Source: Escherichia phage bumzen. Taken from it: a stretch of DNA of 64,000 bases. The translations under genes were made by a program, and so were the position numbers. The notes under the pieces were generated by a model. That model saw only the letters and a program-made list of their open reading frames with translations. It was not told the DNA's origin and searched no databases. How positions within the stretch are numbered: position 1 is the stretch's first letter; every line of letters begins with the position of its first letter. Of this stretch, positions 3,388-63,758 are shown piece after piece. Where the stretch lies: the sequence record MN850635.1; one strand, given 5' to 3'.

Positions 3388-3389
3388 TA

Positions 3390-6939: not shown

Positions 6940-7018
6940 TCCCTTGTTGACTGATTGTTAAGATGGTGTTAATATTCTTTATGGGTATTCTCACCATCTT
7001 GGCTGATGAGGTGATTAA

Positions 7019-7213
7019 ATGCCTACAATCCTAGCAATTCTTCTAAAAAATCTAGGTAGCTTCTTCTGGAAACTCATTTTATCCCTTCTAAGTGAATACA
7101 TGATTGAGAAAGTGTTCTTTAAGCTTGCAAGATACCTTGCGAGTAAAACAGACACACCTATTGATGATGAGTTCGTAGATAACTTAGAAAAAGCTTTTAA
7201 GGGGGAGAAATAA
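7019..7213 (+). CDS. small membrane protein (holin candidate)
   Basis: 64 aa, hydrophobic N-terminal segment, charged C-terminus; follows fiber genes. Confidence 0.3.
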   Translation: MPTILAILLKNLGSFFWKLILSLLSEYMIEKVFFKLARYLASKTDTPIDDEFVDNLEKAFKGEK

Positions 7214-7585
7214 ATGAAGTGGCTAGAGGAAGCTTTTAAAAATAATATTGGTGCAATTGTAGTTGGTATTTTTAGTGTTATTGGGATGTATACCACGATG
7301 CAAGTCTCAAGTGGTAAGCAAGAAGTATCTGTCACAACAAAGTTACAGCAGCTAGATAATTATTCCAAAAGTAACTATTCAGCTATTCGTGATTTACAGT
7401 CTGACATGAGACTGATTCAGCTAGGGATGGAGAACCAGAAAGTTCAGTTAGAGAATGTTAAGGGTGAAAACGCAAAACTTACCAAAACTCTTGATAAATT
7501 CTCTGACAGTGTGAACAATCTGGCTCAATCAGTATCAGCCTTGCAAGCTATTACTGAAAAGAACACAAAGAATACTGAAAAATAA
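7214..7585 (+). CDS. membrane-anchored coiled-coil protein
   Basis: 123 aa; N-terminal TM segment (IGAIVVGIFSVIGMY) then heptad-rich region. Confidence 0.35.
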   Translation: MKWLEEAFKNNIGAIVVGIFSVIGMYTTMQVSSGKQEVSVTTKLQQLDNYSKSNYSAIRDLQSDMRLIQLGMENQKVQLENVKGENAKLTKTLDKFSDSVNNLAQSVSALQAITEKNTKNTEK

Positions 7586-7622: not shown

Positions 7623-8522
7623 TTACTTACCTACTGACAGAGGTGCTTCAATCTTCCCTGCATGTTGGTAGTTGTTAATACCACCAATAAAATCACTTGC
7701 AGTAAGATGTTTCAGGTCACTCAGGGTGTTAAGCTGTACACCAATCTCAAAAGTAGGTGCATGGAACTCTTCATTGTTCATCAGTTTATAAACCTGCTTC
7801 ATATGGTTCTGATAAATCTGGGTATCCCCAAAGACACCTATCAAGTACCGTGGAGTGTATCCAGTCATCTTGCAAAGAACTTCTAAGATGAAGCCATAAG
7901 ACGCAATGTTAAATGGAAGCCCTAAAAAGGTGTCTACAGAACGTTGATACCATTGCAAGTCAACTTCACCTTCGTTAGTGATATAAATCTGAAACAGGAC
8001 ATGACAAGGTGCTAAAGCCATTGAGTTTGCTGCGATATCTGCTGCATTCCAAGCATTAACAAGCATGTATCGGTCTGTGATATCACCCTTCATCTTCGTT
8101 ACTAAGGTCTCTAGCTGGTCTACAACACAACCGTTATAACCTTCAAAGTTTCTCCACTGAACTCCATAGATTCTCCCACCTGCATCCTCTAACCAATCTT
8201 GTTCAGAAGAATAATTAGAGCTTAACCAACGTTTAAAATCATCTGACCAGATAGTCCAGCGTTCTCCGTCATTTTCATCCCAAGTACGGTAACGAAGTTC
8301 ACCCAGCTTATTCTCACCATTCAGGAACCATAAAGCCTCCCCAATAACTTGCCGTGTAAACACCTGTTTAGATGTTAAGAGCGGGAAACCAGTCCTCATA
8401 TCAAAACGAAACTGAGGTGGAGCAAAAGCAGAGATAACATCTCCAGTTCGTGTAGTACGCAGTTCACCAACGGATAAAACATGGTTCAGGATATTTTTGT
8501 AACTTGTATCTGCTTGTGACAT
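7623..8522 (-). CDS. thyA: thymidylate synthase
   Basis: 299 aa; motifs CHVLFQIY and QRSVDTFLGLPFNIASY. Confidence 0.9.
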   Translation of the reverse strand: MSQADTSYKNILNHVLSVGELRTTRTGDVISAFAPPQFRFDMRTGFPLLTSKQVFTRQVIGEALWFLNGENKLGELRYRTWDENDGERWTIWSDDFKRWLSSNYSSEQDWLEDAGGRIYGVQWRNFEGYNGCVVDQLETLVTKMKGDITDRYMLVNAWNAADIAANSMALAPCHVLFQIYITNEGEVDLQWYQRSVDTFLGLPFNIASYGFILEVLCKMTGYTPRYLIGVFGDTQIYQNHMKQVYKLMNNEEFHAPTFEIGVQLNTLSDLKHLTASDFIGGINNYQHAGKIEAPLSVGK

Positions 8523-8523
8523 A

Positions 8524-9069
8524 TCAAAAGTGTCCTTTTACTTGTGGAACATAAATTTCAAAAGTTGCTTTACCATCCTCTGATGGTTTTGACTGTACCT
8601 TTGTAAACACACGGTTATCATACAGCTTCTCAAAGAAGTTTTCAAAAGGTAAATGCACAGTGGCCTCTTCAGTAACTTTATGGAAAACAGTATGGAACAC
8701 CACACTAGCATACGGTAAAGCATTGACAAGGATACCTGCACCACCAATTACAAAGACATCTTCATCAATAGAGCTATCAAGATACTTCAAAAATGCTCCA
8801 AATGACTCTTTACTGGCTTTAGCATACATTACATCATCTTTGCCAAAGTCTATGCCTAAGTATGGTACAGAATTTGTTAAGATGAGGTTTGCACGTTCTG
8901 GTAAAGGTTTACTACCCAGAGTCTTAAAAGTCTCATTACCCATGACTACTAAGTTATTTTTAGTGAGCCTCTTAAACTCTTGCATGTCCTGTTTATGTCG
9001 AGGCCACGGCATACCAGTCGGTGTACCAAATTCACCGTTTTCACCACTTGCAAATATTAGCTTAATCAT
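8524..9069 (-). CDS. dihydrofolate reductase
   Basis: 181 aa; N-terminal MIKLIFA..G.PW pattern, VVMGNETF, PLPERANLILT; adjacent to thyA. Confidence 0.75.
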   Translation of the reverse strand: MIKLIFASGENGEFGTPTGMPWPRHKQDMQEFKRLTKNNLVVMGNETFKTLGSKPLPERANLILTNSVPYLGIDFGKDDVMYAKASKESFGAFLKYLDSSIDEDVFVIGGAGILVNALPYASVVFHTVFHKVTEEATVHLPFENFFEKLYDNRVFTKVQSKPSEDGKATFEIYVPQVKGHF

Positions 9070-9326
9070 TTTGTAAATCCTTTCTTAATGAACCAGTTAA
9101 TAACATTCTTCACAGCTTTATTGCTGTGATAGATTAAGTGTGGTGTAGGTTGGTATGAACCATAGGCCCAGAATGATAGATGCTCACCACAACCAACACA
9201 TGTCGTACTCTCTTCAGCTATATGACCATTAACAATCACATGAACTTCACCTTGCAAGTCTGTACATCCACAATGTGGGCATCGGATAGGTGTTCCATCA
9301 GACTCATAGCAGTGTTCAATTTTCAT
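9066..9326 (-). CDS. small zinc-ribbon protein
   Basis: 86 aa; CPHCGC ... CVGCGEH cysteine pairs. Confidence 0.4.
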   Translation of the reverse strand: MKIEHCYESDGTPIRCPHCGCTDLQGEVHVIVNGHIAEESTTCVGCGEHLSFWAYGSYQPTPHLIYHSNKAVKNVINWFIKKGFTK

Positions 9327-9842
9327 TTATTTAACCTCAAAAACTGGCTCAAGAACCAATATAAAATCTACACAGTCATCTTCTTCATCCAGAATACCAT
9401 CAAAGTTCTTAGGAACGAAGTCGAAGAGGCTCATCACAAAACAGTCAGAAGTAACCTTTATAGTTCCTCCCATGTTCTCTACAGTTAACACTGTACGACT
9501 TTCTTTTACCTCCCTCAGAAGATTACCTACAAAGTCATCTAAGAAGTACTTCATCAATGACTTAAAACCTTTAGGATAATCTGTACCAGAGTATGTTTCA
9601 ATCTGCGGTACAAGCTTAACATTTATACTAGTCTTTGTTAAGAATGCACTAGAGAACATACTATCAGGTAGCTTACAAACAGTCTTTCCAGTACCTTCAT
9701 GTTCAATCTCAACAAAACCAGCTTCGTCGCCACATGTAACTATTTTAAAAGATGCTTCATTCTCATACTGTGAAGCCATAAACTTTTTAAGCATCTCTTT
9801 AAGGAAATCTGCATGAGCATCTTGTAAGTAGACATCAATCAT
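9327..9842 (-). CDS. hypothetical protein
   Basis: 171 aa ORF, operon packing. Confidence 0.45.
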   Translation of the reverse strand: MIDVYLQDAHADFLKEMLKKFMASQYENEASFKIVTCGDEAGFVEIEHEGTGKTVCKLPDSMFSSAFLTKTSINVKLVPQIETYSGTDYPKGFKSLMKYFLDDFVGNLLREVKESRTVLTVENMGGTIKVTSDCFVMSLFDFVPKNFDGILDEEDDCVDFILVLEPVFEVK

Positions 9843-9855
9843 AGTTAATCACCTA

Positions 9856-10215
9856 TTATGGGAACAGACACTTAATGTCATCGTTTTTGAAAACAAAACT
9901 CGTGTAGTTATGACCGTCAACATCCAGCCAAACAGCCTGAACATCTACACCATCAAGATTCTGGTAAAGCTCTTTGATGAAGTGGTCTTTCACAATCTGA
10001 CTGCTAGTTGTTTCCAGCTTAATGTTCGAGATTGCTGAACCTACAGCCATATAGCCCATGACACGTTTCTTCTCAGTATGCTTAATCTTACCATCTTTGT
10101 AAGCCATAATGAGATTGGAAAGAATTTTTACACCATAATACTTTTCAAGGTGAGTAGGTACACCATAAAAACCTAATGCGAAGTTTTCAGAGTGGATAAT
10201 GTTTTCACGTTTCAT
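9856..10215 (-). CDS. hypothetical protein
   Basis: 119 aa ORF. Confidence 0.45.
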   Translation of the reverse strand: MKRENIIHSENFALGFYGVPTHLEKYYGVKILSNLIMAYKDGKIKHTEKKRVMGYMAVGSAISNIKLETTSSQIVKDHFIKELYQNLDGVDVQAVWLDVDGHNYTSFVFKNDDIKCLFP

Positions 10216-10216
10216 A

Positions 10217-10546
10217 TTAATCTGCCAACCTTAAATTAAAATTAACACCAAATTTTTCACATACTTCCAACATATACTCAAGGGAAACATTCCCAGTGAG
10301 GTGGATTATGTTGGATACACGAGCCTGAGAGATACCACAAATTTTAGCAACTTGCTCTTGAGAAAGACCTCTGGATTTAATCTCTCTCTTAAAACGATGT
10401 GCAACGAAGTCTCTCATTTCGTCTACATCCATTGGACAAATATAACTCTCCATTTCAGCCTCTCTATCAGCCTCCCAATCATCTTGTGGGGCATAAGGGT
10501 CAAAAACCTCATTCATCTTTCTTCTTCCGTTTACGTGAAGTATCAA
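10217..10546 (-). CDS. helix-turn-helix DNA-binding protein
   Basis: HTH-like segment LSQEQVAKICGISQARVSNIIHL; true start may be internal Met (MNEVFDPY). Confidence 0.45.
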   Translation of the reverse strand: MILHVNGRRKMNEVFDPYAPQDDWEADREAEMESYICPMDVDEMRDFVAHRFKREIKSRGLSQEQVAKICGISQARVSNIIHLTGNVSLEYMLEVCEKFGVNFNLRLAD

Positions 10547-10721
10547 TTAATGAGTCTATGTTTGTAGCTCTGACCTTTTCACGTTCATCATTAAGATAAT
10601 CATCAAGAGCCTTTTCAATCTGTGAATCATCTTGACAGATAACTGTAAAGACTGTAAAGCCGTCTGTATCGTCAATTATCTTACCATAACCGCTTCTGGG
10701 ATGTAACTTTTTAAGAGCCAT
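10509..10721 (-). CDS. hypothetical small protein
   Basis: 70 aa ORF overlapping neighbour; basic C-terminus. Confidence 0.3.
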   Translation of the reverse strand: MALKKLHPRSGYGKIIDDTDGFTVFTVICQDDSQIEKALDDYLNDEREKVRATNIDSLIDTSRKRKKKDE

Positions 10722-10722
10722 A

Positions 10723-11106
10723 TCAAATACCTGTGCAGCTTCTGTTTTCTAAGAAATACTCAACACCATACATAGCTTTTTGCATCAAATCTTCTTTAAA
10801 CTGGATACGATGATTGAGCATAGACTGTACATCAATATCATCAGGGTGTTTCTCTTTAATATTTGCAGATTGCAGGAAATACTCTGCAAGAACACGATAT
10901 TGGTAGTCAGTTACCTTATCAGTCATCTCTGTCAAAGACTCTTCAGAGATTGGTTTAAGTAGCTCACCATTAGCCAGAGCAACACCTTTTACAATCTGGC
11001 AAGTATCTTCTGGAACACCTGACAAGTCCACATTTGGAAGTTCTGTTGCATTGACTGGTAAATTCATTGTCATAACCATTGCAGCAGCTAATAAAATCTT
11101 TTTCAT
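10723..11106 (-). CDS. secreted/periplasmic protein
   Basis: 127 aa; N-terminal signal peptide MKKILLAAAMVMTMNLPVNA. Confidence 0.45.
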   Translation of the reverse strand: MKKILLAAAMVMTMNLPVNATELPNVDLSGVPEDTCQIVKGVALANGELLKPISEESLTEMTDKVTDYQYRVLAEYFLQSANIKEKHPDDIDVQSMLNHRIQFKEDLMQKAMYGVEYFLENRSCTGI

Positions 11107-11224
11107 AATGACCTCAAAGTTATATTAAATTTTGTATTACGTTGAGTATAAAAATAAGCTATAACACCTGACTTGTCAACAGACTTTATAGCTTATTTGG
11201 CAGATTTTTTATAAGGTTACTGCC

Positions 11225-11570
11225 ATCCTTCCATACCAAACCTCACCTGACCTCGCCTAACCCTACCTTACCCCACCATACAGCACCTTATTAAAACACC
11301 CTGTTTAAAGACCTTTTAAAAAGGTAAGTCTCATTTTAATGTAGCTGAGACTAACTACCCATACCTCACCCTACCAGACCCTACCAGACCAGACCTTACC
11401 CTACCAGACCCTACCGAACATCACTTAAAAACCCTATGAGATACTCTATCGAATATAATTTAAAGACTCTTAAGTGATGTAATCGAATTTTAATGTAGCT
11501 CCGATTAACTACCCATACCTCACCTCACCCAACCATACCATGCCTTGCCAGACCGCACCTTACCTCATTA
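11225..11570. repeat. repeat module with three C+A-rich tracts and conserved hairpin-containing units
   Basis: Tracts at ~11225-11290, 11370-11425, 11513-11570; conserved unit aagaccttttaaaaaggtaagtctcattttaatgtagctgagactaactaccc. Confidence 0.7.
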
Positions 11571-11590
11571 AAAGACCCTCTTAAAAGACC

Positions 11591-11618
11591 TTTTAAAAAG
11601 GAGCCTCCGAAGAGGCTA
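11591..11618 (-). terminator. rho-independent terminator (minus strand)
   Basis: agcctc-ttcg-gaggct hairpin followed by T-run on minus strand, just 3' of gene 11629-12069. Confidence 0.5.
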
Positions 11619-11628
11619 CCTAGTCAAC

Positions 11629-12069
11629 TTAGAAAGGTTTTCTACGTTGCTTGTTAATGTTAGCTTTCATAGCAGCTAAATGGTTTTGCTGTTCAATCAG
11701 TCGTGAACGTTCTTGATGACTAAGCGCCATAGTGTTCACATTCTCAATTGCTTGAGTGGCTTGCTTTAAAGCTCGACCAATCTTACCAGACATTTTGCGT
11801 TTTGCAATAGTTGCTTGATGCTTAGGTTCAACCACACGATAACCAACACCCATTGAAGCAACCAGATAAATCTTCTCTTCTTTAAGAAGCTTTTCAATAA
11901 ACTTCTCAAGTCGGTTTAGACGTGTAAGTGCATAAGCCTTCATTTCATCTTCGTACTTAACAATGTCACCTTGATAAGTTGGCTTCACAATACCTAAGAA
12001 GGTATCCATCTCGGAATGTGATACAGTGTCGCCGTAACTAAACTTTGCTGCTAATGCTTTTGTATTCAT
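11629..12069 (-). CDS. hypothetical protein
   Basis: 146 aa ORF. Confidence 0.45.
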   Translation of the reverse strand: MNTKALAAKFSYGDTVSHSEMDTFLGIVKPTYQGDIVKYEDEMKAYALTRLNRLEKFIEKLLKEEKIYLVASMGVGYRVVEPKHQATIAKRKMSGKIGRALKQATQAIENVNTMALSHQERSRLIEQQNHLAAMKANINKQRRKPF

Positions 12070-12071
12070 AA

Positions 12072-12677
<606 letters not shown>

Positions 12678-12754
12678 TTAGTTGATTGTTAAGTTGTTTG
12701 TAAAGAACCCTCAACAGAAGACTCTTTAGAAACTTGGTAGATTTTTAACGTGGA

Positions 12755-12965
12755 TACTACCATCCACCCATACCGTGCCACACCACACCGGACCGTACCA
12801 TGCCCAACCCTACTACACCAGACCTTATTAAAAGACCCTCTCCAAAGACCTTTTAAAAAGGTAAGTCTCATTTTAATGTAGCTGAGACTAACTACCCATA
12901 CATTACCGCACCATATTATACCCTACCCCACCATACTTCACTGCACCGAGCCACGCATTACATCA
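12755..12965. repeat. second copy of C+A-rich tract/hairpin repeat module
   Basis: 58 bp identical to 11310-11368 (aaagaccttttaaaaaggtaagtctcattttaatgtagctgagactaactacccatac) flanked by C+A-rich tracts. Confidence 0.7.
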
Positions 12966-13213
12966 CTTAAAAACCCTTTTCAAAGACTCTTAAGTGATGC
13001 TGGTGAGTACCCGTTGGTTTATGATGCTCAGTATACTCACCAAATTTCCTATGTCAACAACTTTTATAAAAAAGTTCTGATAGCTATATGCGTCACGAAA
13101 CAAAAGATTGTAAACAAGACACCCATTGCAAAAGATGTGTCCAAAAGCTTACTTGCAACGTATGACAATACAAAGACAACCAGTATAAATAGAATGACTG
13201 TACTGAACATAGT

Positions 13214-14350
13214 TTACTCATAATCCCTAATAACTAGCCCTACAGGAAACTGTAAAGAACCTTTACGAGTCATCTTCTGGAACTGAACAGTTAAAGGTTT
13301 CCCGATAAACTCTTCAGGATGTTCAGCAAGATACTGTTTCTTCTCGTGTGTAGTTTTCCATGAAACATCTACAAAGACGTTAGGAAGAGTCTCTACAACG
13401 AACTTACCATGACCACGCTTATCGGTCTTTACACCAGTCACTTTAAACTCTTCAGTGTGCATCTTCTTGTGCTTAATCAAGAAGTATGAACGGTGACAAC
13501 ACTCATAGAAGGAGTCTTCAGAGATTGAACGGTACATTGCACCTTCAAACTTAGCTTCAACCCACTTATCATGAGCTTCATCAAACTCTTCCCAAGAATT
13601 TACACGGATAGTCTGTACAGGAACAACTCTACAGGTATCCCCAAGCTCAACAATAGGTGAGTTATCAATAACTTCACGACGCTCAGGCCAAGATTTTGAA
13701 TTGTCACAGATATCATACCAGTAGAATTTAAGAAGGTGACGGTCTGGATTGTCAGCATTCTTAATCATAGATACAATATCTTCTAAGTCCCAACCATGAG
13801 CATAAATCTCGCCATCAAAGTCTTCAACTTGCGGGTGTAATTTAAGCAGCAAAAGCAAATCTGGGATTAGTTCTGCTGGAACGTTGTAAACAGTATTCTC
13901 ACGAGAATAAGCCGTGAAACTAACTGAATCAGCATCTCTTGAAATTCTGCAACGTACACCATCAAGTTTTGGTTGAGCATCAGCAGGGAACTTCAAATAC
14001 TTTGCGTGGCTAACCTTTGCAGCATCATGAGCAAGCTGTACACCTGCCTTTTCAGTATTCTGTGCAGACTCTTTTGTGTAAGCATAACCTTTGCGGTCAA
14101 CTTGCTTTTTGTACTTAGCAGCAACTTCAAAGAGAGCTTGCTGTTCAGCGTTACGCTCATTCTTTTTACCGATGTTTTTAGGTTCTGCTGTATACTCTTC
14201 AAACATCATCTTGCCATTTTCTTTACCGTAGGTTGTAATAACTTTGTTACCTACAGCAACGCATGACCAGACGTTAAAAGAGCCATCTTTATTTTGTTTG
14301 TATAGAATTGTCATTTTTAACCTCTGAGTGATACCAAGTATTGCAAGCAT
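13214..14350 (-). CDS. ATP-dependent DNA ligase
   Basis: Adenylation motif I PKLDGVRC; size as for phage ligases; start may be internal Met (MTILYK). Confidence 0.75.
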   Translation of the reverse strand: MLAILGITQRLKMTILYKQNKDGSFNVWSCVAVGNKVITTYGKENGKMMFEEYTAEPKNIGKKNERNAEQQALFEVAAKYKKQVDRKGYAYTKESAQNTEKAGVQLAHDAAKVSHAKYLKFPADAQPKLDGVRCRISRDADSVSFTAYSRENTVYNVPAELIPDLLLLLKLHPQVEDFDGEIYAHGWDLEDIVSMIKNADNPDRHLLKFYWYDICDNSKSWPERREVIDNSPIVELGDTCRVVPVQTIRVNSWEEFDEAHDKWVEAKFEGAMYRSISEDSFYECCHRSYFLIKHKKMHTEEFKVTGVKTDKRGHGKFVVETLPNVFVDVSWKTTHEKKQYLAEHPEEFIGKPLTVQFQKMTRKGSLQFPVGLVIRDYE

Positions 14351-14502
14351 TACATGCGTAAAGCTCTAAGTCATTTTTATCTGGTTTATGAAAACAGTTT
14401 GCTCCGCAGTGGCAACGAAATGGCTTTCCACCAACTGTCAGGACGAAGGACTGAATCTTTCCATCAGGAGTCCGTACAGCATTTTATGCTTATCTTCTTT
14501 GT

Positions 14503-14808
14503 TCATTTCCTCTTGCCACCAATTTCTACGTCAATAACTTGAACATCACCAGCAACATCAAACTTATGAATGATGCTTTCCACAGTGTAAGTCCAACCAT
14601 CAATGCGAACCAACTCACCTTCTCGTGGGACGATTGGGTTACGTTGAGCTACCGTTGTAGTAGAGTGAACAACATCATAACAATAGATATAGTTTACTAG
14701 GACTTCCATCGTGAAACCCTCACTCAATAACCGTAGTGTGTGATTGACCATTTTTGCCATAGCTATAAGATGTTGTTGTTTGGGAGTTTGGACATCTGAC
14801 AACAACAA
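14503..14808 (-). CDS. hypothetical protein (start uncertain)
   Basis: ORF overlaps upstream lipoprotein gene; real start probably an internal Met. Confidence 0.3.
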   Translation of the reverse strand: MLLSDVQTPKQQHLIAMAKMVNHTLRLLSEGFTMEVLVNYIYCYDVVHSTTTVAQRNPIVPREGELVRIDGWTYTVESIIHKFDVAGDVQVIDVEIGGKRK

Positions 14809-14956
14809 TATCTCTGCTTATAGCATCACCATGTAACTTGTATACTCTGCAATCTTGCATCTCTGGTGGGAGGCTGTAAGAAGCATTTTTATCTTCATAA
14901 GAAGGGTTGCAGCCAGATAGAAAAATAACACCAAGCGCAATTACTGATTTCCACAT
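14720..14956 (-). CDS. small lipoprotein
   Basis: Signal peptide with lipobox MWKSVIALGVIFLSGC; start set at internal Met. Confidence 0.4.
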   Translation of the reverse strand: MWKSVIALGVIFLSGCNPSYEDKNASYSLPPEMQDCRVYKLHGDAISRDIVVVRCPNSQTTTSYSYGKNGQSHTTVIE

Positions 14957-15143
14957 AATACACCCCTGTTTACTGTTCACGATGCTCTACTTCTCTGTAT
15001 GTACGTCGATAATGAATGATAAGTGGTGCTAATTCATTGCTTTTAACATTTGAGCGTAACAGTTGCCAGTCAAAACCTTTACCAACTCTTCCATATAAAT
15101 TAAAAAACTTAACTTTGCGTTTCATTTTCGGTATCTCCAATAT

Positions 15144-15371
15144 TCAGAGGTTAATATTAATACGTTCGCCCTTAAGGACTCCAGTACGGTCCCTTGCAAT
15201 CTTACCATCAACAATAAGGATATGCGCAGACCTTAAAGAGTCATTATTAAAACCTTTTACGAACTTACTAGGCATCACTACAATAAGCATCTCCTGAATC
15301 AACTCTGGAGTATAGCAGTTATCATGAAGTTGTTGGATAACGTCTGCAAGTGTCATTTTTGATGTCTCCAA
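15144..15371 (-). CDS. hypothetical small protein
   Basis: 75 aa ORF. Confidence 0.3.
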   Translation of the reverse strand: METSKMTLADVIQQLHDNCYTPELIQEMLIVVMPSKFVKGFNNDSLRSAHILIVDGKIARDRTGVLKGERININL

Positions 15372-15562
15372 TACTCAATGTCAATAAGTTCTTGTGCAAT
15401 GCTTTTCAGATTACCTTTCAAGAAAACCTTCTCAGAACCTGAAAGAGATGAATTGTCAATTAACCTGTTCATTCTCTCAAACAACTTCTGCTTACGGTTC
15501 TTGATAGTTTCCTTTGAAGCGCCTTTCATCATCGCTGCATGGGTTCTTCCACGATGGCTCAT
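15353..15562 (-). CDS. hypothetical small basic protein
   Basis: 69 aa ORF. Confidence 0.3.
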   Translation of the reverse strand: MSHRGRTHAAMMKGASKETIKNRKQKLFERMNRLIDNSSLSGSEKVFLKGNLKSIAQELIDIEYWRHQK

Positions 15563-15613
15563 AAGTCCTCCTATACAAGATATTGTATAAGGTACTCTTC
15601 CCTGAGCACCTTG

Positions 15614-16147
15614 TCAACTTAGTTTTGCAAACTCTCCGTGGAGTTTAATAGCAGCTTCACAGTAAGCTTTATGGGCTTCTTCAGGGGTGTCATGGTGACC
15701 TAAAAACATCTTCTTACCTTTATAACTTATCTGTGCGACCCACTTACCAGACTTCTTCTTAAGACTTACACCCTTGTACCCAGATTTATTGGTGACTGGT
15801 TTACCTTTATTCCAAGCACTTTGAAAATCATCTGCTTCCCTTAAGTTTACAATCCTGTTGTCAAGTGAGTCTCCGTTGATATGGTCAATGATACCTTTTG
15901 GCATCTTGCCATACACGTAAAGCCATGCGAGTCTGTGTGCTTTATGTGCTTTCTTGTCAAAATAGATACTAATCTGTTTATGACCACTTGAATCAGTCTG
16001 GATATTACCTGCCACCTTTCCTGCATAATTACTGTTAAAAACACTAACAGCTCTTGATTTACCTTCTCTACGAAGCCAAGTAAAGACCCCTGTTTCGGGG
16101 TCATAGTGCAGCAGCTCCTTTAAACGTTTTTGTAAAATTAAATCCAT
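15614..16147 (-). CDS. HNH homing endonuclease
   Basis: 177 aa; paralog of 25743-26243 (shared LHYDPETGVFTW, HRLAW, IDHINGD..DNR..NLR, SGYKGVS); sits beside DNA polymerase gene. Confidence 0.7.
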   Translation of the reverse strand: MDLILQKRLKELLHYDPETGVFTWLRREGKSRAVSVFNSNYAGKVAGNIQTDSSGHKQISIYFDKKAHKAHRLAWLYVYGKMPKGIIDHINGDSLDNRIVNLREADDFQSAWNKGKPVTNKSGYKGVSLKKKSGKWVAQISYKGKKMFLGHHDTPEEAHKAYCEAAIKLHGEFAKLS

Positions 16148-16150
16148 TAA

Positions 16151-18880
16151 TCAATGTACCTCATACCAGCTCTTACCAACCTTTGCTGTACCAGTTACAA
16201 GTGTTTCTTTCCTCAAACCTAAGTTTTTTGAAGCTTGTCCATACATCCAGTCAGCAATTGCTTTCATATCATGTGTCATACCCTCTGGACATTCCCAACT
16301 ATTTTCATCGTGATATGCCAGAAGTAACCTTGCTCCGATAGCTGGTTTTCGAGCATTCAGTTTTGTCAGGCCATCTTCACAGGCTTTTCTTGCTGCTAGG
16401 TTGATGGCCTCATTCTGAATCTGTGCTTCCGAACTCATCAGGAGGTAGTTCAGTAGTTTATGTGGAGATTTGCACCATATCCATGCTCCAGCGACCCTGA
16501 TATAACCACCTTTAGCAATTGAAGAATTCTTCCCAAAAACCTCTTCCAGAGCCTTTTTAGACGCCTTAAAATCGGCTTCTAAACTATCAAGTAACTTCTT
16601 AATCTTTGGCAGACGCATATAGTAAGTTTGTTTAGTCAATGCACCTTCTTCCGTAGATGATGCCTTGATAGTTTTTGCAAACTTCTCGTCTCCGGCTCCA
16701 AATAACAGGGCGTAGATGCCATTTTTGCTCTTCTTACGGCCTTTTGTAATCTCGTGAAGAAGTTCCTCATCCTGTGTCTCCCTACAACGAACAATATCTT
16801 CTTCCTTGTTCAGACCAAAGTAAATACTGTTCAGTGTATGCGCATCAGTCCCTGTGTAGACTTCATAGAGGTCGTTCTCAGCATCATAACGAAGATACTT
16901 GTCAGTTTCTGGATTAAGATACTTATCGAGATGCTTGCAATAGTATCTGCCATCCTCTTGCTTAGTGAACTCTACTGACTCTTTACCCTCAGTTACCGCT
17001 TTAGTGAAGTCTTCATCACCCATAAAGTTACAAAGAAGAACTAGCTGTGCAGAGTTCTGGTCAACTGAAACGATATTAGTACCTTCCTCGCAAATCCAAA
17101 CCTCCCTCATAGGTGCTCCATAGACAGCAGCACCAGACGGTACGTTTACAATACCATATTGTGTCATACGTCCAGTTGAAGTACCAAACACCATTGCACC
17201 AGCACTAAGGCGACCATCAGGACGAATCTGGTTCAACCAACCTTTTTCATCATCCTTTGAGTTCTCAATAGTTCTGCGTCTGTGCATCAAAGTATAGTAC
17301 TTAGCAATCTTCTGTCCAAGCTCACCTTCAATCGTATCATAAGATGACTCAGTAAGTTTTGGTGAAGTACGGATTAAGCAAGGCTCAAGCAAATCTGTGT
17401 ATTTCTTCACAGACCAGTTATGCTCAATGTACTGGACACCTTCATGTTCAACATAACTTAAACCACATCGTTCCACCATCTCCTGCCACTTAGGATGTTT
17501 TGTAATCATCTTTTTATTGTCTTTGAAACGACAAACTTTGACAGGGCGACCGTCTGAGTCTTTCTTGTAGTTCCAGTCATCTGGAATCCAACCAACTGAT
17601 TTCAAGTAGTCTTTAACAACTGCTACCTGAGTCATACGAGAAACTTCAAACTCAATTGGTGTATATGGTGCATCAATCAAACCTGTGTAGCGACTTGACT
17701 CAAGTTCAAAGTGGTTAACAACGTGGCTGTTATAGTACTTCACAGTTTTGACTGTTTTTACTGGCTTCCAGTCTTTGCATTTCTTACCAATCTTTGCATT
17801 CAACTCATTGCAAATTGCACGAGCATCCTTCATTGCTACAAAACCTTCCTTGTACTCTTCACCAGTTACAGAGTTGGTTGGTGTATAGCAATTCCTTTTT
17901 TCAATGTTAAAAATCTTTGTAGTTGGCTTACCAAATGGCTTGATTTCATATGTCTGCATCTCACCGTTACGTACCTGCTGACGGTACTTCGTCTTAGGGT
18001 ACTTGGTAATTCTCTTCAGTCCATCTGCATGACCAAATGTTTCAACATACTCATTCCAAGCCCTTGCAAACTCTTCTCCAGTGACTTTACCTTTGGTCTT
18101 AATAGTTGGAGGAAGATGTGGTTCAACCTCTGAAGCAAGCTCATTAGTCAACTTGTCAAGTTCCTTTACATGGAACTCCATAAGCTCTTTGTCAGCTTTC
18201 CAACCATTGATAGCTTGCTGGCTCATCCAGAAAGATGTCTCTTTAGCTCGCATGTAGGTTTCATAAGTGTCTATGCCACACTTCTTAAGCTTGAGATACT
18301 CATTATCAAGTGCCCGTTTAGTTTTGGCGTTAATACGGATATCTTCTACAACACGAGTGAAGATTTCTGCATTCCACACACCCCAATGCTCAATCTCTGG
18401 CTTACGAACACCAACACGAGCACCCCATGCAGCCAAGCCATGAGCACCTTTATAACCCTTTGGGGTTGGTCTATCCATCCACTGAACACGAGACTGGATA
18501 AGAGAGTCCTGAAAGAAATTACTCCACGGTTTACACTTTGGATTATCAAAGTTCCATAAATCAGGTGCAATGTGATTGAAAACCCACCAGTCATAACCGA
18601 GACCATTATGGATGCAAAGACGTTTTGCCTTTAACGCAAATTCAACACCTTCACGTAAACCACCTTTGATGTACTTGGTATACTTGTGACCGAGGATAGG
18701 CTCATCTGTAAAGACCCATACAGGTGGCTCTTCATCGTCAGATTTATAGTCTGCGAAAGCCATTACGTGCACTTTAGTGAACTCAAGGAGTAAACCATCA
18801 GTTTCTGTATCACCAACCAAATGTAAGTTTTTAAAATCTACGTTTTCCATTTTTACTCCCTCTAAAATCATTAACCTCAT
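16151..18880 (-). CDS. DNA polymerase, family A, with 3'-5' exonuclease domain
   Basis: 909 aa; N-terminal exo motif VGDTETDGL; motif C-like LLLAYHDEN; motif A-like DQNSAQL. Confidence 0.85.
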   Translation of the reverse strand: MRLMILEGVKMENVDFKNLHLVGDTETDGLLLEFTKVHVMAFADYKSDDEEPPVWVFTDEPILGHKYTKYIKGGLREGVEFALKAKRLCIHNGLGYDWWVFNHIAPDLWNFDNPKCKPWSNFFQDSLIQSRVQWMDRPTPKGYKGAHGLAAWGARVGVRKPEIEHWGVWNAEIFTRVVEDIRINAKTKRALDNEYLKLKKCGIDTYETYMRAKETSFWMSQQAINGWKADKELMEFHVKELDKLTNELASEVEPHLPPTIKTKGKVTGEEFARAWNEYVETFGHADGLKRITKYPKTKYRQQVRNGEMQTYEIKPFGKPTTKIFNIEKRNCYTPTNSVTGEEYKEGFVAMKDARAICNELNAKIGKKCKDWKPVKTVKTVKYYNSHVVNHFELESSRYTGLIDAPYTPIEFEVSRMTQVAVVKDYLKSVGWIPDDWNYKKDSDGRPVKVCRFKDNKKMITKHPKWQEMVERCGLSYVEHEGVQYIEHNWSVKKYTDLLEPCLIRTSPKLTESSYDTIEGELGQKIAKYYTLMHRRRTIENSKDDEKGWLNQIRPDGRLSAGAMVFGTSTGRMTQYGIVNVPSGAAVYGAPMREVWICEEGTNIVSVDQNSAQLVLLCNFMGDEDFTKAVTEGKESVEFTKQEDGRYYCKHLDKYLNPETDKYLRYDAENDLYEVYTGTDAHTLNSIYFGLNKEEDIVRCRETQDEELLHEITKGRKKSKNGIYALLFGAGDEKFAKTIKASSTEEGALTKQTYYMRLPKIKKLLDSLEADFKASKKALEEVFGKNSSIAKGGYIRVAGAWIWCKSPHKLLNYLLMSSEAQIQNEAINLAARKACEDGLTKLNARKPAIGARLLLAYHDENSWECPEGMTHDMKAIADWMYGQASKNLGLRKETLVTGTAKVGKSWYEVH

Positions 18881-19107
18881 ACATTACTGCAAAAAATTAT
18901 AAAAAGCAAGTTGACAATGCACTTGACAAGGTGTTAATCTTTGCGAAGTGGGTTTTTACTTAAAAGGTTACTTAACAGTTTAACTATACAGATACTTTAA
19001 AACTCTTAAAAGATTATTTAATAGCTTTTAAAAAGCTTTAAAGTATAACGTATAGAATACGTTAAGATAAAAGATTAAAACTTAATAGTTACTTAAAAGA
19101 GGCTTAC

Positions 19108-19530
19108 ATGCAGAAAATGTTTGTTCACCCAGACATAGCTGACTTTGTTAGAGCTTTGCAGAAGTTGGAAGAACTTGACATTGCTGCTCAACGGGAATAT
19201 GCTCACCATCACAGGAGAATGGTTGATATACAACATGAAATAGAGTTATCTGAAAACTATGAAGATGACTTAAAATGCTCTGTGTTTGAGCATATGAAAG
19301 ATGTTGCTACAGCGAGACGTAAAGCTAAAGACACAGTTGCTTTACTAGACTCTCTTAAAAAGAGGTTGCAAAGTGGTACAGACCTGTGTAATCTAGCGTC
19401 ACTGATTAACGATGTTGAAACTTCTTGGGATAGGCACTATTATCCACGTTCTGAAAAGACACTTGACTTTTCTTCATCCGAAAACTTAAAATGTTCTAGA
19501 AAGAAACTTAACCAACTGAGAGAGAAATAA
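19108..19530 (+). CDS. hypothetical protein
   Basis: 140 aa ORF, first gene of plus-strand block. Confidence 0.5.
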   Translation: MQKMFVHPDIADFVRALQKLEELDIAAQREYAHHHRRMVDIQHEIELSENYEDDLKCSVFEHMKDVATARRKAKDTVALLDSLKKRLQSGTDLCNLASLINDVETSWDRHYYPRSEKTLDFSSSENLKCSRKKLNQLREK

Positions 19531-19531
19531 T

Positions 19532-20332
19532 ATGAATATCGATGTAGAAAAGATGCTTGAAGAAAAAGGTATTGACGAAGCATTTTTAATCAATGCCGTA
19601 GAAAGCATGGCTATGATTCTTCGTGGGAACAACTACACAGAACAGTTTATGCCTTCAAGCTATAACTTGCCTGAAGACAAGTCTGATAATGGTGCTTTTG
19701 CAGAACAGGTTAACATGATGTTGACAGACACTACACTTGCTTTAGCATCTATAGTCGTAGGTGTTGATGCTCTTGCAGAGTTCATTTTTAAGGAGATGCA
19801 GAAAAATGACTATATCTCCCTTAACTCTGAAGAAAAGGACTTATTACTGTCATTAGGTAATAATGAGTTAATTTCCATGATAATTTCATCAACAAGTGCT
19901 GTTATGGCTGCTCTTGAGAAGCGAATGGGAGAGAAGCTGTCACGATATGAAAAACTTGATTGGGGGGTAGAAGAACTAAACCCACGAATCCAAGAAATTA
20001 TCCAGCAAACCAAAGATTCTTTGGAAGAAGCTGTTGAAAATGACTCTGTAGCTGATATAGAACCACTTCAGGTGAAAGTTGCACTGATGATTCCAGCTAT
20101 CTCTACGATGATGAATATCGTTGCACTAATCCAACTTTCACAGATGATGGGTGTAAGTATTGAGTTCATTGAGGAGATGACTGGTGGCGTTAGTATGCAA
20201 GCCATCAATGATGTTTTGGTGAACATTGGTGCTTCAATCATTGAAGAAAAACTACGCATTAACTTCGGTGATGATTTTGTGAAGCAAATCTCAGCTATGG
20301 CTGAAAAAGAGTATGCTGACCAACTGCACTAA
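19532..20332 (+). CDS. hypothetical acidic protein
   Basis: 266 aa ORF. Confidence 0.5.
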   Translation: MNIDVEKMLEEKGIDEAFLINAVESMAMILRGNNYTEQFMPSSYNLPEDKSDNGAFAEQVNMMLTDTTLALASIVVGVDALAEFIFKEMQKNDYISLNSEEKDLLLSLGNNELISMIISSTSAVMAALEKRMGEKLSRYEKLDWGVEELNPRIQEIIQQTKDSLEEAVENDSVADIEPLQVKVALMIPAISTMMNIVALIQLSQMMGVSIEFIEEMTGGVSMQAINDVLVNIGASIIEEKLRINFGDDFVKQISAMAEKEYADQLH

Positions 20333-20350
20333 GTCTTTATAAATCTTACA

Positions 20351-20375
20351 AGCCTCCTTAGTTGGGGGCTTTTTA
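20351..20375 (+). terminator. rho-independent terminator
   Basis: agcctcc-ttagttg-ggggct then ttttt. Confidence 0.5.
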
Positions 20376-20393
20376 GTAATTAAGGGAGATAAA

Positions 20394-21137
20394 ATGAGTA
20401 ATATTATCGCATTTACTGGAAAGGCACGTTCTGGAAAAGACACCTCGTGTTCTATTGTGAAGAACATCTTAGAGGATGAGTACGGCTACAATGTTGCAGT
20501 AATGGCCTATGCAGACAACCTTAAACTATCTGCATCAAAGATATTTGACCTGACTTGGAATGACCTGTATGGTGAAACTAAAGAGACTCCACAGGTTTTT
20601 GATTTATCATATCCTGAATTGATGTTCAAAGTTACAGAAGTTATGGAGTTTACCTTCAAAGATGAACGTTACCATATGGATTTTAAGCTTATGTCAGAAC
20701 TAACCGGACGATTAATCATGGAGCTTAAGAAGATTGCTAAACCGACTCTATTAACACGTCTAGGATTTAGCAACAAGTATAAATTCTCATCAAGACAAAT
20801 TCAACAGATTTGGGGTACTGAAGTCATCCGTAAAGTTATGGGTGACAAATTCTGGGCTAAAGACCTTGAAAAACGAATGGCTCGCTTCTTTGAATCTTGT
20901 TCACTTATGAATCAAGAGGGTGTTGTTTTAATCAGTGACTTAAGGTTTGACTCTGAAGCTGAGTGGCTGAGTAGATTTGCACACCAGACTATTGAAGTAA
21001 AAAGAGACAATGTGGACAAGGTTTCATCACATGTTTCAGAAAATGGAATTTCTACCAAATATGCGCGTGACATTATCCATAATAATGGTACTCTTGCAGA
21101 CCTTGAAAGTAAGCTAAGAGCTATCCTGAAGATTTAA
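20394..21137 (+). CDS. deoxynucleoside monophosphate kinase
   Basis: P-loop GKARSGKDT near N-terminus as in phage dNMP kinases; 247 aa; good RBS. Confidence 0.6.
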   Translation: MSNIIAFTGKARSGKDTSCSIVKNILEDEYGYNVAVMAYADNLKLSASKIFDLTWNDLYGETKETPQVFDLSYPELMFKVTEVMEFTFKDERYHMDFKLMSELTGRLIMELKKIAKPTLLTRLGFSNKYKFSSRQIQQIWGTEVIRKVMGDKFWAKDLEKRMARFFESCSLMNQEGVVLISDLRFDSEAEWLSRFAHQTIEVKRDNVDKVSSHVSENGISTKYARDIIHNNGTLADLESKLRAILKI

Positions 21138-21145
21138 AAGAGAGA

Positions 21146-21346
21146 ATGAAGATGAGAGTAAAAGACAATTTTAAAGTTATTGACCACCGTTTAGTGGAAC
21201 TCTCATCTCTTTCCAATGAGGTAATGATTGAACGTCTTAAGAGAGTTGAATCACGAAGGAAAGAGATTGCAGATGAAATTCATGAACTGGACAAGATTGA
21301 AAATGGATTGAAGGCAGAACTACAACGAAGAGGTGCTAATGTCTAA
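21146..21346 (+). CDS. small coiled-coil protein
   Basis: 66 aa ORF. Confidence 0.35.
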   Translation: MKMRVKDNFKVIDHRLVELSSLSNEVMIERLKRVESRRKEIADEIHELDKIENGLKAELQRRGANV

Positions 21347-23324
21347 AGGTCGTAAATTGAAAGAGGCTGGTCAGTTTATTGGTCATTGTGCATGTCCACG
21401 TTGTGGTTCATCAGATGCTGGTTCAATCTATCATCATGACGATGATTCTTATTCGATGACTTGCTTTAGCTGTAACAAAGGTTTCCCAGAGTGGGATTTT
21501 GATAAAGGACAAATCGTGAGCACTTATTCTACTGGTTCAGATAACAAAAACCGTACTTTCCGTGGAATGGATTTAGACGATGTAAAAGAAAACCTAGAAG
21601 CAATGGACTTGAAAGACAGGAAGATTCCTGCAAAAGTCCTTGAACGCTTAGGTATCAAGGTTGACATTGACAGTGACGGTGAAATTGATGCGCATTTCTA
21701 TCCAACTTACAAACGTAATGAAGATGGTAAGCTAGAGCATGTTGGTTACCGTGTTCGTCACCGTTACCCAGAAGACCATCCAAAAGAGCACCTACGTGGT
21801 AAGCTAAAAGACTTTTCTGGTGGTGTTGGAGACATTAAAGGTGAACTGGCAATGTTCGGTTCATGGATTGCTCCAGAAGGTGGTAACCGTCTATTCATCT
21901 GGGAAGGTGAGATGGAATGTGCGACAGCAATCTATATGACTTCTCTTGCGATTAAAGATAAGTCTCGTCGTAAGAATTACTGTCACGTATCTGTACCATC
22001 AGGTGCAAACATTAAGTCTATCAAAGACAACTATCAGTACATCACATCATTTGATGAGATTTACTTGTGCTTTGATAACGATGAAGCAGGTGCTAAAGCC
22101 ACTAAAGAGGCTGCTGGCATTCTCCCTATCGAGAAGGTTCGTTTATTCCAGTATCCAGAGGGTGTAAAAGACCTTAACGAATGGTGGACAAAGTTCTATA
22201 AAGAGAAAGATACAGTTCTTGAAGGGTTTAAGCAGCGTATATACAATGCACCCCGTTACTGCCCTGCTGGTATCAAGAACTTCGCAGATGGTTTTGAGGC
22301 AATGAAGAATCGTGGTCAGATTCCATTGATTCCTTTCCCAGAATCATTCGGAGATTTGAACAGACTGACTTATGGCGGTTATGGTTTAGGTGAGATTACA
22401 ACTCTGGCAGCACCCTCTTCAGTGGGTAAATCTGCATACACTCGTGAAATGATTTACACAGCTTGGAAAGAAACCGATTACAATATTGGTGTAATTCCTG
22501 TAGAAGATACCTATGAAGAGTTGATGGAGATGCTTTGTGCAATCCACCTTAGCAAGCAGATTTCTGAGATTCCTTATGACGAACGCGATTGGGATGAATT
22601 GAAGGAAGCACACGCAGAACTGTCTAAAGGTCGTCGTATCCACATCGTAGACCATCAAGGGGCAATTGACCAAGATAACTTGCTGGAGTTTGTTGACTAT
22701 CTTGTTAATAGCTTAGACTGTAAGATTATTATTCTTGACCCTATTACGTTGGCTCTGTCACGTTCAGATACGGATGAAGAGGAAGTTTTGTCTGAGCTAT
22801 TGCGTCGTTGCAAACGCTACCAGTATGCACAAGTGAACGTCTGTCACGTTCGTAAGAGTGCAGGTGGTCAGAAGGCTAACTCTGAAGGTGGGGATATCTC
22901 TGAAGAGGATATTAAAGGCTCTGGTGCGTATTTCCAGATTTCTATGAACAACATTCTGTTAATGCGTAACAAGGTTGACCCAGACCCTGTTAAGAAAAAC
23001 TTGACAAAAATCAAGCTAACTAAATGTCGTCGTCACGGTAAGTCAACGGGTATTGCTGGTCATACTTGGTACAATCCAGATACAGGACGCCTCATCAAAG
23101 CATCTGGTTGCGGAGTTGACATTGATGGTGCAGCAGAAAATATTCGCCAACAGTTTGGTATTGGTGAAGCTGAAGACCATTACGATGACTCTTTGCCACA
23201 TTATGAGGATGAAGTGTTTGACCGTGAGACTGGTGAAGTCTATACTGAAGAGCAGCGCCAAAGCTCAACGATTCCACCTGTATTAAGTGAGGATGCAGAT
23301 GACTGCCCATTCGAAACTGAGTGA
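21333..23324 (+). CDS. bifunctional DNA primase-helicase (T7 gp4-like)
   Basis: N-terminal Zn-ribbon CACPRCG...CFSCNKG; central primase region; C-terminal helicase with Walker A APSSVGKSA. Confidence 0.85.
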   Translation: MLMSKGRKLKEAGQFIGHCACPRCGSSDAGSIYHHDDDSYSMTCFSCNKGFPEWDFDKGQIVSTYSTGSDNKNRTFRGMDLDDVKENLEAMDLKDRKIPAKVLERLGIKVDIDSDGEIDAHFYPTYKRNEDGKLEHVGYRVRHRYPEDHPKEHLRGKLKDFSGGVGDIKGELAMFGSWIAPEGGNRLFIWEGEMECATAIYMTSLAIKDKSRRKNYCHVSVPSGANIKSIKDNYQYITSFDEIYLCFDNDEAGAKATKEAAGILPIEKVRLFQYPEGVKDLNEWWTKFYKEKDTVLEGFKQRIYNAPRYCPAGIKNFADGFEAMKNRGQIPLIPFPESFGDLNRLTYGGYGLGEITTLAAPSSVGKSAYTREMIYTAWKETDYNIGVIPVEDTYEELMEMLCAIHLSKQISEIPYDERDWDELKEAHAELSKGRRIHIVDHQGAIDQDNLLEFVDYLVNSLDCKIIILDPITLALSRSDTDEEEVLSELLRRCKRYQYAQVNVCHVRKSAGGQKANSEGGDISEEDIKGSGAYFQISMNNILLMRNKVDPDPVKKNLTKIKLTKCRRHGKSTGIAGHTWYNPDTGRLIKASGCGVDIDGAAENIRQQFGIGEAEDHYDDSLPHYEDEVFDRETGEVYTEEQRQSSTIPPVLSEDADDCPFETE

Positions 23325-34668: not shown

Positions 34669-34679
34669 AACTTGACAAG

Positions 34680-35066
34680 GTGGTGTGGGTCTTGATAGGC
34701 TTACATCACCTTTTTATTTGGAGTTACATTATGGACTTGTGGCTTTATGTAGCAGTTTGTGGGATTGTATGTCTGATAATCTTATTTATTCTTGGAATAA
34801 TGCGATTTAGAGACATCATACAGTCAGATTTTTTGCCTGAGTTTACCATGATAGTTGGAGTTATTACACTTTGTGTCTTGGCTGTGTTCTATTCATACAA
34901 AACTGTGATATGGATGGAGGCAAACAATTGTGTAAAAACTCATCAGCATCGTGAGGTTACTCATTTTGTGAGTGTACTTAGTGGTAGCACCACTATACTT
35001 GTCCCACAAACTTCTGTAGAGTATCTTTACACATGTGATAATGGTAAAACTATATGGTGGAATTAA
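34680..35066 (+). CDS. membrane protein
   Basis: 128 aa with several hydrophobic segments. Confidence 0.35.
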   Translation: MVWVLIGLHHLFIWSYIMDLWLYVAVCGIVCLIILFILGIMRFRDIIQSDFLPEFTMIVGVITLCVLAVFYSYKTVIWMEANNCVKTHQHREVTHFVSVLSGSTTILVPQTSVEYLYTCDNGKTIWWN

Positions 35067-54261: not shown

Positions 54262-54390
54262 TCAATAACTTACAAAAAACTTTTTAAAAAGTATTGACAA
54301 TACCCCTTGACATTGGTAAATTTGTTCGAGGGGGTTTATCTAAAAGGGATTCACTTAAAAGATTCTTTATAGATAGACTTAAAAAATTGC

Positions 54391-63531: not shown

Positions 63532-63758
63532 GGCAGACCTACAGCTTTAAGTAAGATGGTACAGTAATCCATACAACAAGTCAAGAACTATTGCAAGTTA
63601 AAAAAGTTGTTGACAAAGTACTTGACAAGGTGTAGGCTTATAAATACTTAGAAGATAACTTAAAAGGTTCCTCTAAAAAGGCTATTTAAACAGATATCTT
63701 TCTGGATATCTATCTTTTATCTTAAAAGCCTTTTAAGAGGTCTTATAAGAGGCATACC

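Follow-up and report, generated by a model that had tools for sequence, protein, structure and literature searches.

No phage RNA polymerase is found in the Felix O1-like phages, for which sigma70-like promoters have been predicted, P41 among them (Whichard et al. 2010, PMC3185647). RT-PCR in Felix O1 has shown ORFs 41, 42 and 96-99 to be maximal at 25 min (PMC3185647). Infectious Felix O1, VpaE1 and Alf5 have also been made from naked DNA in an all-E. coli cell-free system, and dependence on the host RNA polymerase is supported both by this synthesis and by the Felix O1 paper (PMC3185647). Phages of this type are widely used in Salmonella and E. coli typing, in biocontrol and in cell-free phage engineering, and their promoters have so far been guessed by consensus scans only. 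In the middle promoters of phage T4, a MotA box at -30 (with AsiA) replaces the -35 element and is found at a fixed distance (11-13 bp) from a good -10. In lambdoid PR' complexes, sigma region 4 binds -35-like elements outside normal promoter geometry.

Here we describe a short motif that recurs in 64,000 nucleotides of DNA from Escherichia phage bumzen (MN850635.1), a stretch referred to throughout as the window. Megablast of positions 15000-23000 returned many Escherichia and Salmonella phages at 95-97% identity over the full length, and the gene layout is that of Felix O1; the window thus belongs to Felixounavirus, that is, to a Felix O1-like myovirus. A scan of the whole window against Rfam gave no matches, and no tRNA genes were found in it. 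The motif, a 13-mer, probably forms the core of promoters of the host sigma70 type, in which the -35 is perfect and the -10 skeletal. The observation is real and mostly ordinary, with one conserved architecture, a tandem -35 pair, that is without explanation. The searched literature on Felix O1-like phages contains no start-site mapping, no transcriptome and no mention of the motif. Nor is there any description of the repeated motif, of three of its promoters (c1, c2 and c4 below), of the tandem -35 layout or of a promoter inside a terminator, whereas P41 has been known as a prediction since 2010 (PMC3185647).

The repeated 13-mer and its sites

The 13-mer ACTTGACAAGGTG is present in three exact copies, all on the plus strand and all intergenic, which are named c1 (18921), c2 (34670) and c3 (63620). 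Their identity had been reported in an earlier note on this DNA and was confirmed by an exact search of the window. A fourth site, c4 (15607), is found on the minus strand between an HNH endonuclease gene and the gene at 15353-15562, 44 nt before the ATG at 15562. The 11-mer TTGACAAGGTG is the common core of c1-c4, with c4 included. The features discussed in this report are collected in Table 1.

Table 1. Transcription units, motif sites and associated features of the window, with proposed elements marked as such.
Feature	Position	Strand	Remarks
Late unit, its end	1-7585	+	
Unit with the DNA polymerase gene as last member	7623-18850	-	
Xre/Cro-type HTH protein, candidate binder	10217..10516	-	99 aa; Pfam HTH_3 39.7 bits; PHROG 1373
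c4, AGTTGACAAGGTG	15607-15619	-	one mismatch to the 13-mer; intergenic, faces next gene; predicted start about 15582
Divergent promoter, DNA polymerase unit	18881..18909	-	TTGCTT (18909-18904), 17 bp, TAATGT (18886-18881)
c1, upstream TTGACA, proposed functional -35	18911..18916	+	A-rich tract before; 18-bp spacer to TAATCT
c1, 13-mer copy 1	18921..18933	+	proximal TTGACA 18923-18928, terminal TG 18932-18933; in spacer of putative gp97-unit promoter
c1, proposed -10 TAATCT (TGt-TAATCT)	18935..18940	+	predicted start about 18947
Long unit: replication, nucleotide-metabolism, rII and many small early genes	19108-55340	+	
c2, 13-mer copy 2	34670..34682	+	TTGACA 34672-34677, proposed -35
Intrinsic terminator after nrdD	34677..34719	+	hairpin 34677-34712 (16-pair stem) plus T-run
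c2, proposed extended -10 TGaTAGGCT	34693-34701	+	in descending arm of terminator; predicted start about 34708
c5, third tandem -35 promoter	54294..54322	+	TTGACA-N7-TTGACA-N4-TAAATT; without AGGTG tail; predicted start about 54329
ORF-free gap	55341-57012		
Unit between the ORF-free gap and the c3 region	57013-63531	-	
Divergent promoter, gp40-24 unit	63556..63584	-	TTGACT, 17 bp, TACCAT
c3, upstream TTGACA	63610..63615	+	-35 of published Felix O1 promoter P41
c3, 13-mer copy 3	63620..63632	+	promoter-proximal TTGACA 63622-63627 of tandem -35 pair
c3, proposed -10 TAGGCT	63633..63638	+	17 bp from upstream hexamer; predicted start about 63645
gp41 unit, its start	63760 onward	+	

An exact triple of a 13-mer is not rare in itself and, taken alone, is not overwhelming: first-order Markov simulations gave a mean of 0.65 13-mers with at least three copies per window. 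Matches to the 13-mer with at most two mismatches number 11 in the window, against 2.65 +/- 1.7 in shuffles, and none of the 100 shuffles reached 11. The earlier note had proposed a count in relatives, and the complete 85.9-kb genome of phage ph2-2 contains exact copies only at the same three orthologous sites, with none in the 22 kb that the window lacks. The distribution of the 13-mer is non-random because all of its copies are intergenic, face the downstream gene and recur as the sole exact copies at the orthologous positions of ph2-2. The near-matches at 7999, 10140, 11967, 18149 and 43576 were rejected as sites, being inside genes; those at 7999 (thymidylate synthase gene) and 18149 (DNA polymerase gene), each with one mismatch, are found at the same coding positions in relatives and are therefore conserved as coding sequence. 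A pattern scan of IMG/VR with TTGACANNNNNNTTGACAAG gave, among the matches listed, only unrelated random ones.

The copies had been placed at the heads of three transcription units. This is true of c1 and c3, which head large plus-strand units, whereas c2 is an internal intergenic site directly 3' of nrdD, 61 bp from the downstream ATG at 34731, and does not head a major divergent unit. The downstream genes also need new starts, as longest-ORF starts mislead at 18848-18880, 34680-34733 and 63759-63762. The small membrane-protein gene 3' of c2, previously placed at 34680, has its start instead at ATG 34731, preceded by the ribosome-binding site GGAG, as in the ph2-2 annotation, and GTG 34680 is a wrong start. 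The gp41 homologue after c3 starts at 63760 rather than 63759, and for the DNA polymerase gene the most likely start is ATG 18850, not 18880, which gives a length in agreement with the ph2-2 annotation.

The core CTTGACAAG is, as the earlier note said, a perfect odd palindrome of 9 bp. It is mostly a by-product, because TTGACAA is itself palindromic and the C and G on either side of it change in relatives; orthologous sites keep no more than the 7-bp symmetry that TTGACAA has of its own. An extended dyad, CACCTTGACAAGGTG, is approached by c1 alone, with one base missing, and elsewhere is not conserved. In phages SUSP1 and Mordin TTGACAAGGTG is found exactly at c1, c2 and c4. Single variants of the tail are known at c2 (ATGTG), c4 (GGGTG) and c1 (GGGTG), and at c3 the tail is relaxed in relatives (AGCTG, ACGTG, AGATG, AGGTA); the version in Felix O1 itself is ACTTGACAAGGTA. 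The two bases before TTGACA vary at c2-c4 (AG, TC, TA, GC). The G after TTGACAA varies as well.

Promoter anatomy at the motif sites

The TTGACA of the 13-mer would represent the canonical -35 hexamer, which it matches at 6 of 6 positions at all sites, and the preceding C fits the extended E. coli -35 consensus. The candidate -10 hexamers match at only 3 of 6 positions. At c2 and c4 they are found downstream of the motif's own hexamer (TAGGCT at 18 bp with TGn, and TACCTT at 17 bp), and at c1 and c3 downstream of a second, upstream hexamer (TAATCT at 18 bp with TGn, and TAGGCT at 17 bp). They are the weakest of all the TTGACA promoters in the window, the others matching at 4-5 of 6. A strict consensus scan, in which 4 of 6 matches were required, calls no promoter at c1-c3 on the plus strand or at c4 on the minus strand because of these 3/6 hexamers. 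The tail of the 13-mer would serve a different local purpose from site to site.

At c1 and c3 the second TTGACA is found 12 bp upstream of that of the 13-mer (at 18911 and 63610), in each case preceded by an A-tract. The earlier statement that no good -10 is found 17 bp downstream is correct for the 13-mer's own TTGACA (AAGTGG, ATAGGC and TACTTA at c1, c2 and c3), and at c1 and c3 nothing resembling a -10 is present at 16-18 bp from it. It is the upstream hexamers that have a TAnnnT at 17-18 bp, and the 13-mer of c1 and c3 therefore lies in the putative spacer. The view that the motif is not a plain -35 thus survives in part: its hexamer at c1 and c3 is invariant yet not aligned with a -10, but it is nevertheless a perfect sigma70 -35 hexamer, and a TAnnnT is available through either the upstream TTGACA or an 18-bp spacer. 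The two sites may represent paralogous divergent control regions that head the two large plus-strand units. RNA polymerase would take the upstream TTGACA together with TGtTAATCT (18 bp) or TAGGCT (17 bp), and the 13-mer would fill the spacer and supply the TG next to the -10, with a long, conserved, AT-rich leader following each predicted start. The terminal TG occupies the extended -10 position at c1. At c3 it abuts the -10 rather than being one base away, and Felix O1 has TA there, which counts against the promoter model.

The conservation of these two regions was followed across Felixounavirus, Suspvirus, Mooglevirus and two further lineages, in 12 distinct sequences for c1 and 11 for c3. 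Both TTGACA hexamers are invariant in all of them, and the 6-nt linker between the two varies freely. The -10 at c1 is TAATCT or TAGTCT (the latter in Mooglevirus and a fourth lineage), and that at c3 is TAGGCT, TAGCCT, TAAGTT or TAGTGT; in both cases T, A and the final T are fixed and the changes are in the middle bases. Across genera, this is the substitution pattern to be expected if the -10 elements are real. In the Erwinia-phage relatives (Kolesnikvirus) the c1 locus has one TTGACA, followed after 17 bp by TACATT. The divergent promoter of the DNA polymerase unit has the -10 TAGGGT in Mooglevirus.

A minus-strand TATAAT at 18896-18901 is 10 nt from the reversed hexamer pair, a layout that resembles a pho box. 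The pho boxes have an 11-bp period. A pho-box-like reading was rejected because neither SUSP1 nor the Mooglevirus phages have kept this TATAAT and because the period of the hexamers is 12-13 bp.

At c2 and c4 the motif's own TTGACA would act as the -35, paired with TGaTAGGCT and TACCTT, respectively, and the AAGGTG would double as the 5' arm of a hairpin. The hairpin at c2 (AAGGTG...CACCTT) has a folding energy of -25.9 kcal/mol (z -5.6), with AAGGTG as the 5' foot of the stem. A G+C-containing hairpin followed by a T-run at a gene end is found at c2 only, and in Mordin the equivalent stretch is annotated as a terminator. A transcript from about 34708 would lack the 5' arm of this hairpin and would not be terminated; as the predicted start falls past that arm, c2 is a putative promoter nested in the nrdD terminator. 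Incoming transcripts would stop and new ones start within about 50 bp. At c4, which has a single hexamer with TACCTT at 15594-15589, two small hairpins follow the site; AGGTGCTC pairs with GAGTACCT in a hairpin (z -2.6) that has no T-run. Both c2 and c4 thus have a hairpin after the motif, with a 3' arm that reads (C/T)ACCTT, whereas no significant hairpin is found at c1 or c3 (z -1.5 and -1.8). The -10 candidates of c2 and c4 are invariant in relatives and therefore provide no substitution evidence, and TACCTT at c4 may be conserved only as a stem arm. The two modules stay upstream of the same downstream gene whichever gene precedes them in SUSP1 and Mordin. SUSP1 has a homing endonuclease gene in the interval from nrdD to c2, and in Mordin c4 comes directly after the polymerase gene because there is no HNH gene there. 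At these hairpins transcription would restart inside units.

A third tandem promoter, c5, has conserved counterparts in ph2-2, SUSP1 and Mordin; over the four genomes its -10 varies between TAAATT, TAATGT, TACATT and TAACTT. The architecture common to c1, c3 and c5 is TTGACA, 6-7 nt, TTGACA, 4-6 nt, TAnnnT, and one similar tandem site is found in the Erwinia phage Fifi318 (at 75789). All three show the evolutionary signature of a sigma70-type promoter, in which the hexamers are fixed, the spacer is free and T-A---T is kept.

From this anatomy, the spacing, the orthologous conservation and the substitution pattern we infer that E-sigma70 would use these sites, with start points near those predicted. 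The second hexamer is strictly conserved and therefore does something; it may be a decoy or a second docking site for sigma region 4, or else the site of a factor. The promoter model does not explain why the proximal TTGACA is as invariant as the upstream one beside a freely varying linker, nor does it account for the AGGTG common to the four sites or for the 3/6 -10 hexamers.

A number of other control and repeat regions were seen in the window. In this genome a hairpin commonly comes straight after the -35 of other promoters too, and several of these read TT(G/T)ACA-AGG (43802, 50032, 52883). Such promoter-with-hairpin cassettes are found at 43802-43835, 50023-50090, 52874-52941 and 49584-49620 (and copies), and the one between rIIA and rIIB reads TTGACA-AGGGGCTTTGAAGCCCCT-TAGAAT. 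The early region harbors families of 40-60-bp repeats in which a TTTACA promoter is joined to a hairpin and a ribosome-binding site; they were noted in part, as direct repeats, in the Felix O1 paper (PMC3185647). Mobile endonuclease genes cluster around control sites (SUSP1 5057-5620; ph2-2 2203-4663): nrdD is annotated in two pieces in ph2-2, and the HNH gene between the polymerase gene and c4 is present in Felixounavirus and SUSP1 and absent in Mordin.

The AT-rich leaders of c1 (18940-19107) and c3 (63640-63759) are long and rich in short CTTAAAAG-type repeats, and ACTTAAAAGGTT is present in both at the same offset. That of c1 has seven repeats (CTTAAAAG, CTTAACAG, TTTAATAG) in 135 bp, which is the densest spot in the window, and these often come as pairs 11-12 bp apart. 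The c3 leader has two CTTAAAAG-type repeats as well as the inverted repeat AGATATC-tttctg-GATATCT (63692-63711), and across genera it is more conserved than the genes on either side. The motif family of the c1 leader is also found in the 1.7-kb gap (read on the minus strand) that separates two of the units, in the form of repeats of CTTAACAG, CTAACAAG and CTTACAG phased at about 11 bp. This gap has no ORF, tRNA or Rfam match, has ORF-free equivalents in SUSP1, Mordin and Fifi318, and may be an origin, or else an array of iterons or of protein-binding sites. Finally, repeated modules are found at 11107-11628 and about 12820-13060 (minus strand reading), composed in order of a hairpin (AAAGACCTTTTAAAAAGGTCTTT), about 11-12 GGT triplets and a second hairpin (GGGTAGTTAGTCTCAGCTAC). 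The triplets are 2 nt apart, a 5-nt period that was confirmed with Tandem Repeats Finder. There are more copies of these modules in SUSP1, fewer in ph2-2 and none at the same spot in Mordin; in layout only, they recall the sites to which ring-shaped RNA-binding proteins bind, TRAP for example.

Alternative readings of the motif

It is possible, if rather unlikely, that TTGACA(A/G)GGTG is an operator for a phage DNA-binding protein, most plausibly the Xre/Cro-type HTH protein of Table 1. Bound between the -35 and the -10 at c1 and c3, or on the -35 at c2 and c4, such a protein would shut off or time a regulon made up of the replication, nucleotide-metabolism and tRNA-unit promoters. The four sites have 11 bases in common, with sharp boundaries and no similarity downstream, their positions would occlude RNA polymerase, and, single variants aside, three genera have the motif unchanged at c1, c2 and c4. 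However, the tail is relaxed at c3 and varies singly at c2 (ATGTG) and c4 (GGGTG), and AGG after the -35 is also found in other promoters, where the hairpin starts with it. The HTH protein, which was named in the earlier note and has a 40-residue N-terminal extension, is the only recognizable transcription regulator among the 22 early-region and other window proteins that were scanned, the minus-strand operon included. A cognate candidate regulator is thus encoded by the motif-bearing genomes: homologues are present in 260 phage records (Escherichia, Salmonella, Shigella and Citrobacter phages), with the gene found in Felixounavirus, Suspvirus and Mooglevirus. None is found in the Erwinia or Pectobacterium relatives, though a gp97 homologue is present there; the complete Erwinia-phage genome Fifi318 has no TTGACAAGGTG in its intergenic DNA, and the c1 loci examined in Erwinia and Pectobacterium phages lack the AAGGTG tail. 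This co-distribution agrees with an operator role but is a single clade-level event, and so represents one evolutionary contrast. Conservation of the palindrome stops at TTGACAA, and this speaks against an operator with the dimer symmetry expected for an Xre-type protein. A search of solved structures with the HTH protein returned generic Xre-family relatives only, with no informative operator precedent, and the main text of the CRISPRi-ART paper on SUSP1 has nothing on the HTH regulator. Its match to sigma70 region 4 in Pfam is sub-threshold (22 bits against a cut-off of 24.1) and probably reflects generic HTH similarity. Such an operator could supply a mechanism for the timing of transcription in Felix O1.

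That the sites form a promoter class of the phage's own, read by host polymerase in a remodelled form and resembling the T4 middle promoters in its logic, appears to us improbable. An early phage factor would here alter sigma region 4 or its attachment to the beta-flap, such that the promoter-proximal TTGACA, 4-6 bp from the -10, becomes the element used and transcription switches from early to middle. This would fit the tandem -35 with a proximal hexamer at that distance from the -10 at three loci in three genera, with one such locus in an Erwinia phage, and it would also fit -10 hexamers that are the weakest among the TTGACA promoters of the window. There is the lambdoid PR' precedent for sigma region 4 on -35-like elements, and the sites head replication, nucleotide and tRNA units. 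In Felix O1, ORFs 41, 42 and 96-99 have their RT-PCR maximum at 25 min (PMC3185647), although this published timing is coarse. On the other hand, only one hexamer is present at c2 and c4, and its spacing is ordinary. No AsiA- or MotA-like, sigma-like or polymerase-binding protein was recognized among the 22 proteins scanned, a result that is uninformative rather than negative, as all but the HTH protein are without annotated function; the Felix O1 paper reports no MotA or AsiA relatives (PMC3185647). Least credible of all is that the identity beyond TTGACA is functionless, a product of common descent of duplicated cassettes (c1 with c3, c2 with c4) and of unrelated local constraints. The regions of c1 and c3 do have in common the tandem hexamers with an A-tract before them and ACTTAAAAGGTT at +37/+38, no shuffle reached their local alignment of 44 columns, and c2 and c4 share the hairpin and 3' arm described above. 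However, the c1 leader scores about as high against other AT-rich intergenic regions as it does against c3, AGGTG would have to be common to both pairs by coincidence, and a second hexamer that stays invariant beside a freely varying linker points to selection on it.

Host-type promoters thus remain the preferred reading. More tentatively, and with the odds against it, TTGACA(A/G)GGTG and the tandem -35 may mark a phage-specific regulon, controlled by a factor that recognizes or re-uses a -35-like box. Members of this regulon would be the operons for replication and nucleotide metabolism, the unit 3' of nrdD and the gp41/tRNA unit, and the factor could be either the clade-restricted Xre-type HTH protein, acting as a switch, or an early protein that repositions sigma region 4 onto the proximal hexamer. 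If true, it would provide the missing mechanism of temporal control in Felix O1-like phages. The map given here brings together four related promoters with two divergent partners, a third tandem -35 promoter and corrections to three gene starts. If the second hexamer or the AGGTG tail is a factor site, then the switch between early and middle transcription would have been identified; if not, these are simply well-conserved host-type promoters.

Comparison with known systems

The sites mirror E. coli sigma70 promoters in their perfect -35, a spacer of 17-18 bp to a candidate TAnnnT -10, the TGn at c1 and c2 and the upstream A-tract, and in being correctly placed and oriented before genes. They differ in that the phage -10 matches only 3 of 6 positions and has a G+C-rich middle, and in the second perfect -35 hexamer found inside the spacer at c1, c3 and c5, 4-6 bp from the -10. 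Felix O1 P41 occupies the same locus as c3 and uses the upstream TTGACA as its -35. In contrast to the model presented here, its published -10 is TATAGG at 15 bp, whereas TAGGCT at 17 bp fits the lineages better; that paper reports no promoter between ORFs 96 and 97, which is where c1 is found, and notes neither the repeated motif nor the tandem hexamers (Whichard et al. 2010, PMC3185647).

The T4 middle promoters, like the sites described here, have a phage-specific box near -30 before replication, nucleotide-metabolism and tRNA genes. However, the box of the Felix-type phage holds a canonical -35, and its distance from the weak -10 is not fixed, being 1, 13, 0 and 12 bp at c1-c4, respectively. 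Operators of the Cro/CI (Xre) type resemble the motif as short conserved sites over a promoter core, with a small Xre-type HTH gene in the same genomes; unlike them, the candidate site has no conserved dyad and only 11 bp, and the phage is virulent. Finally, the terminator-promoter modules of compact phage genomes are mirrored by c2, where terminator and promoter are found in the same 50 bp or so, and by the -35-plus-hairpin cassettes at 43802 and in the early region. This likeness fits c2, and loosely c4, but does not extend to c1 and c3.
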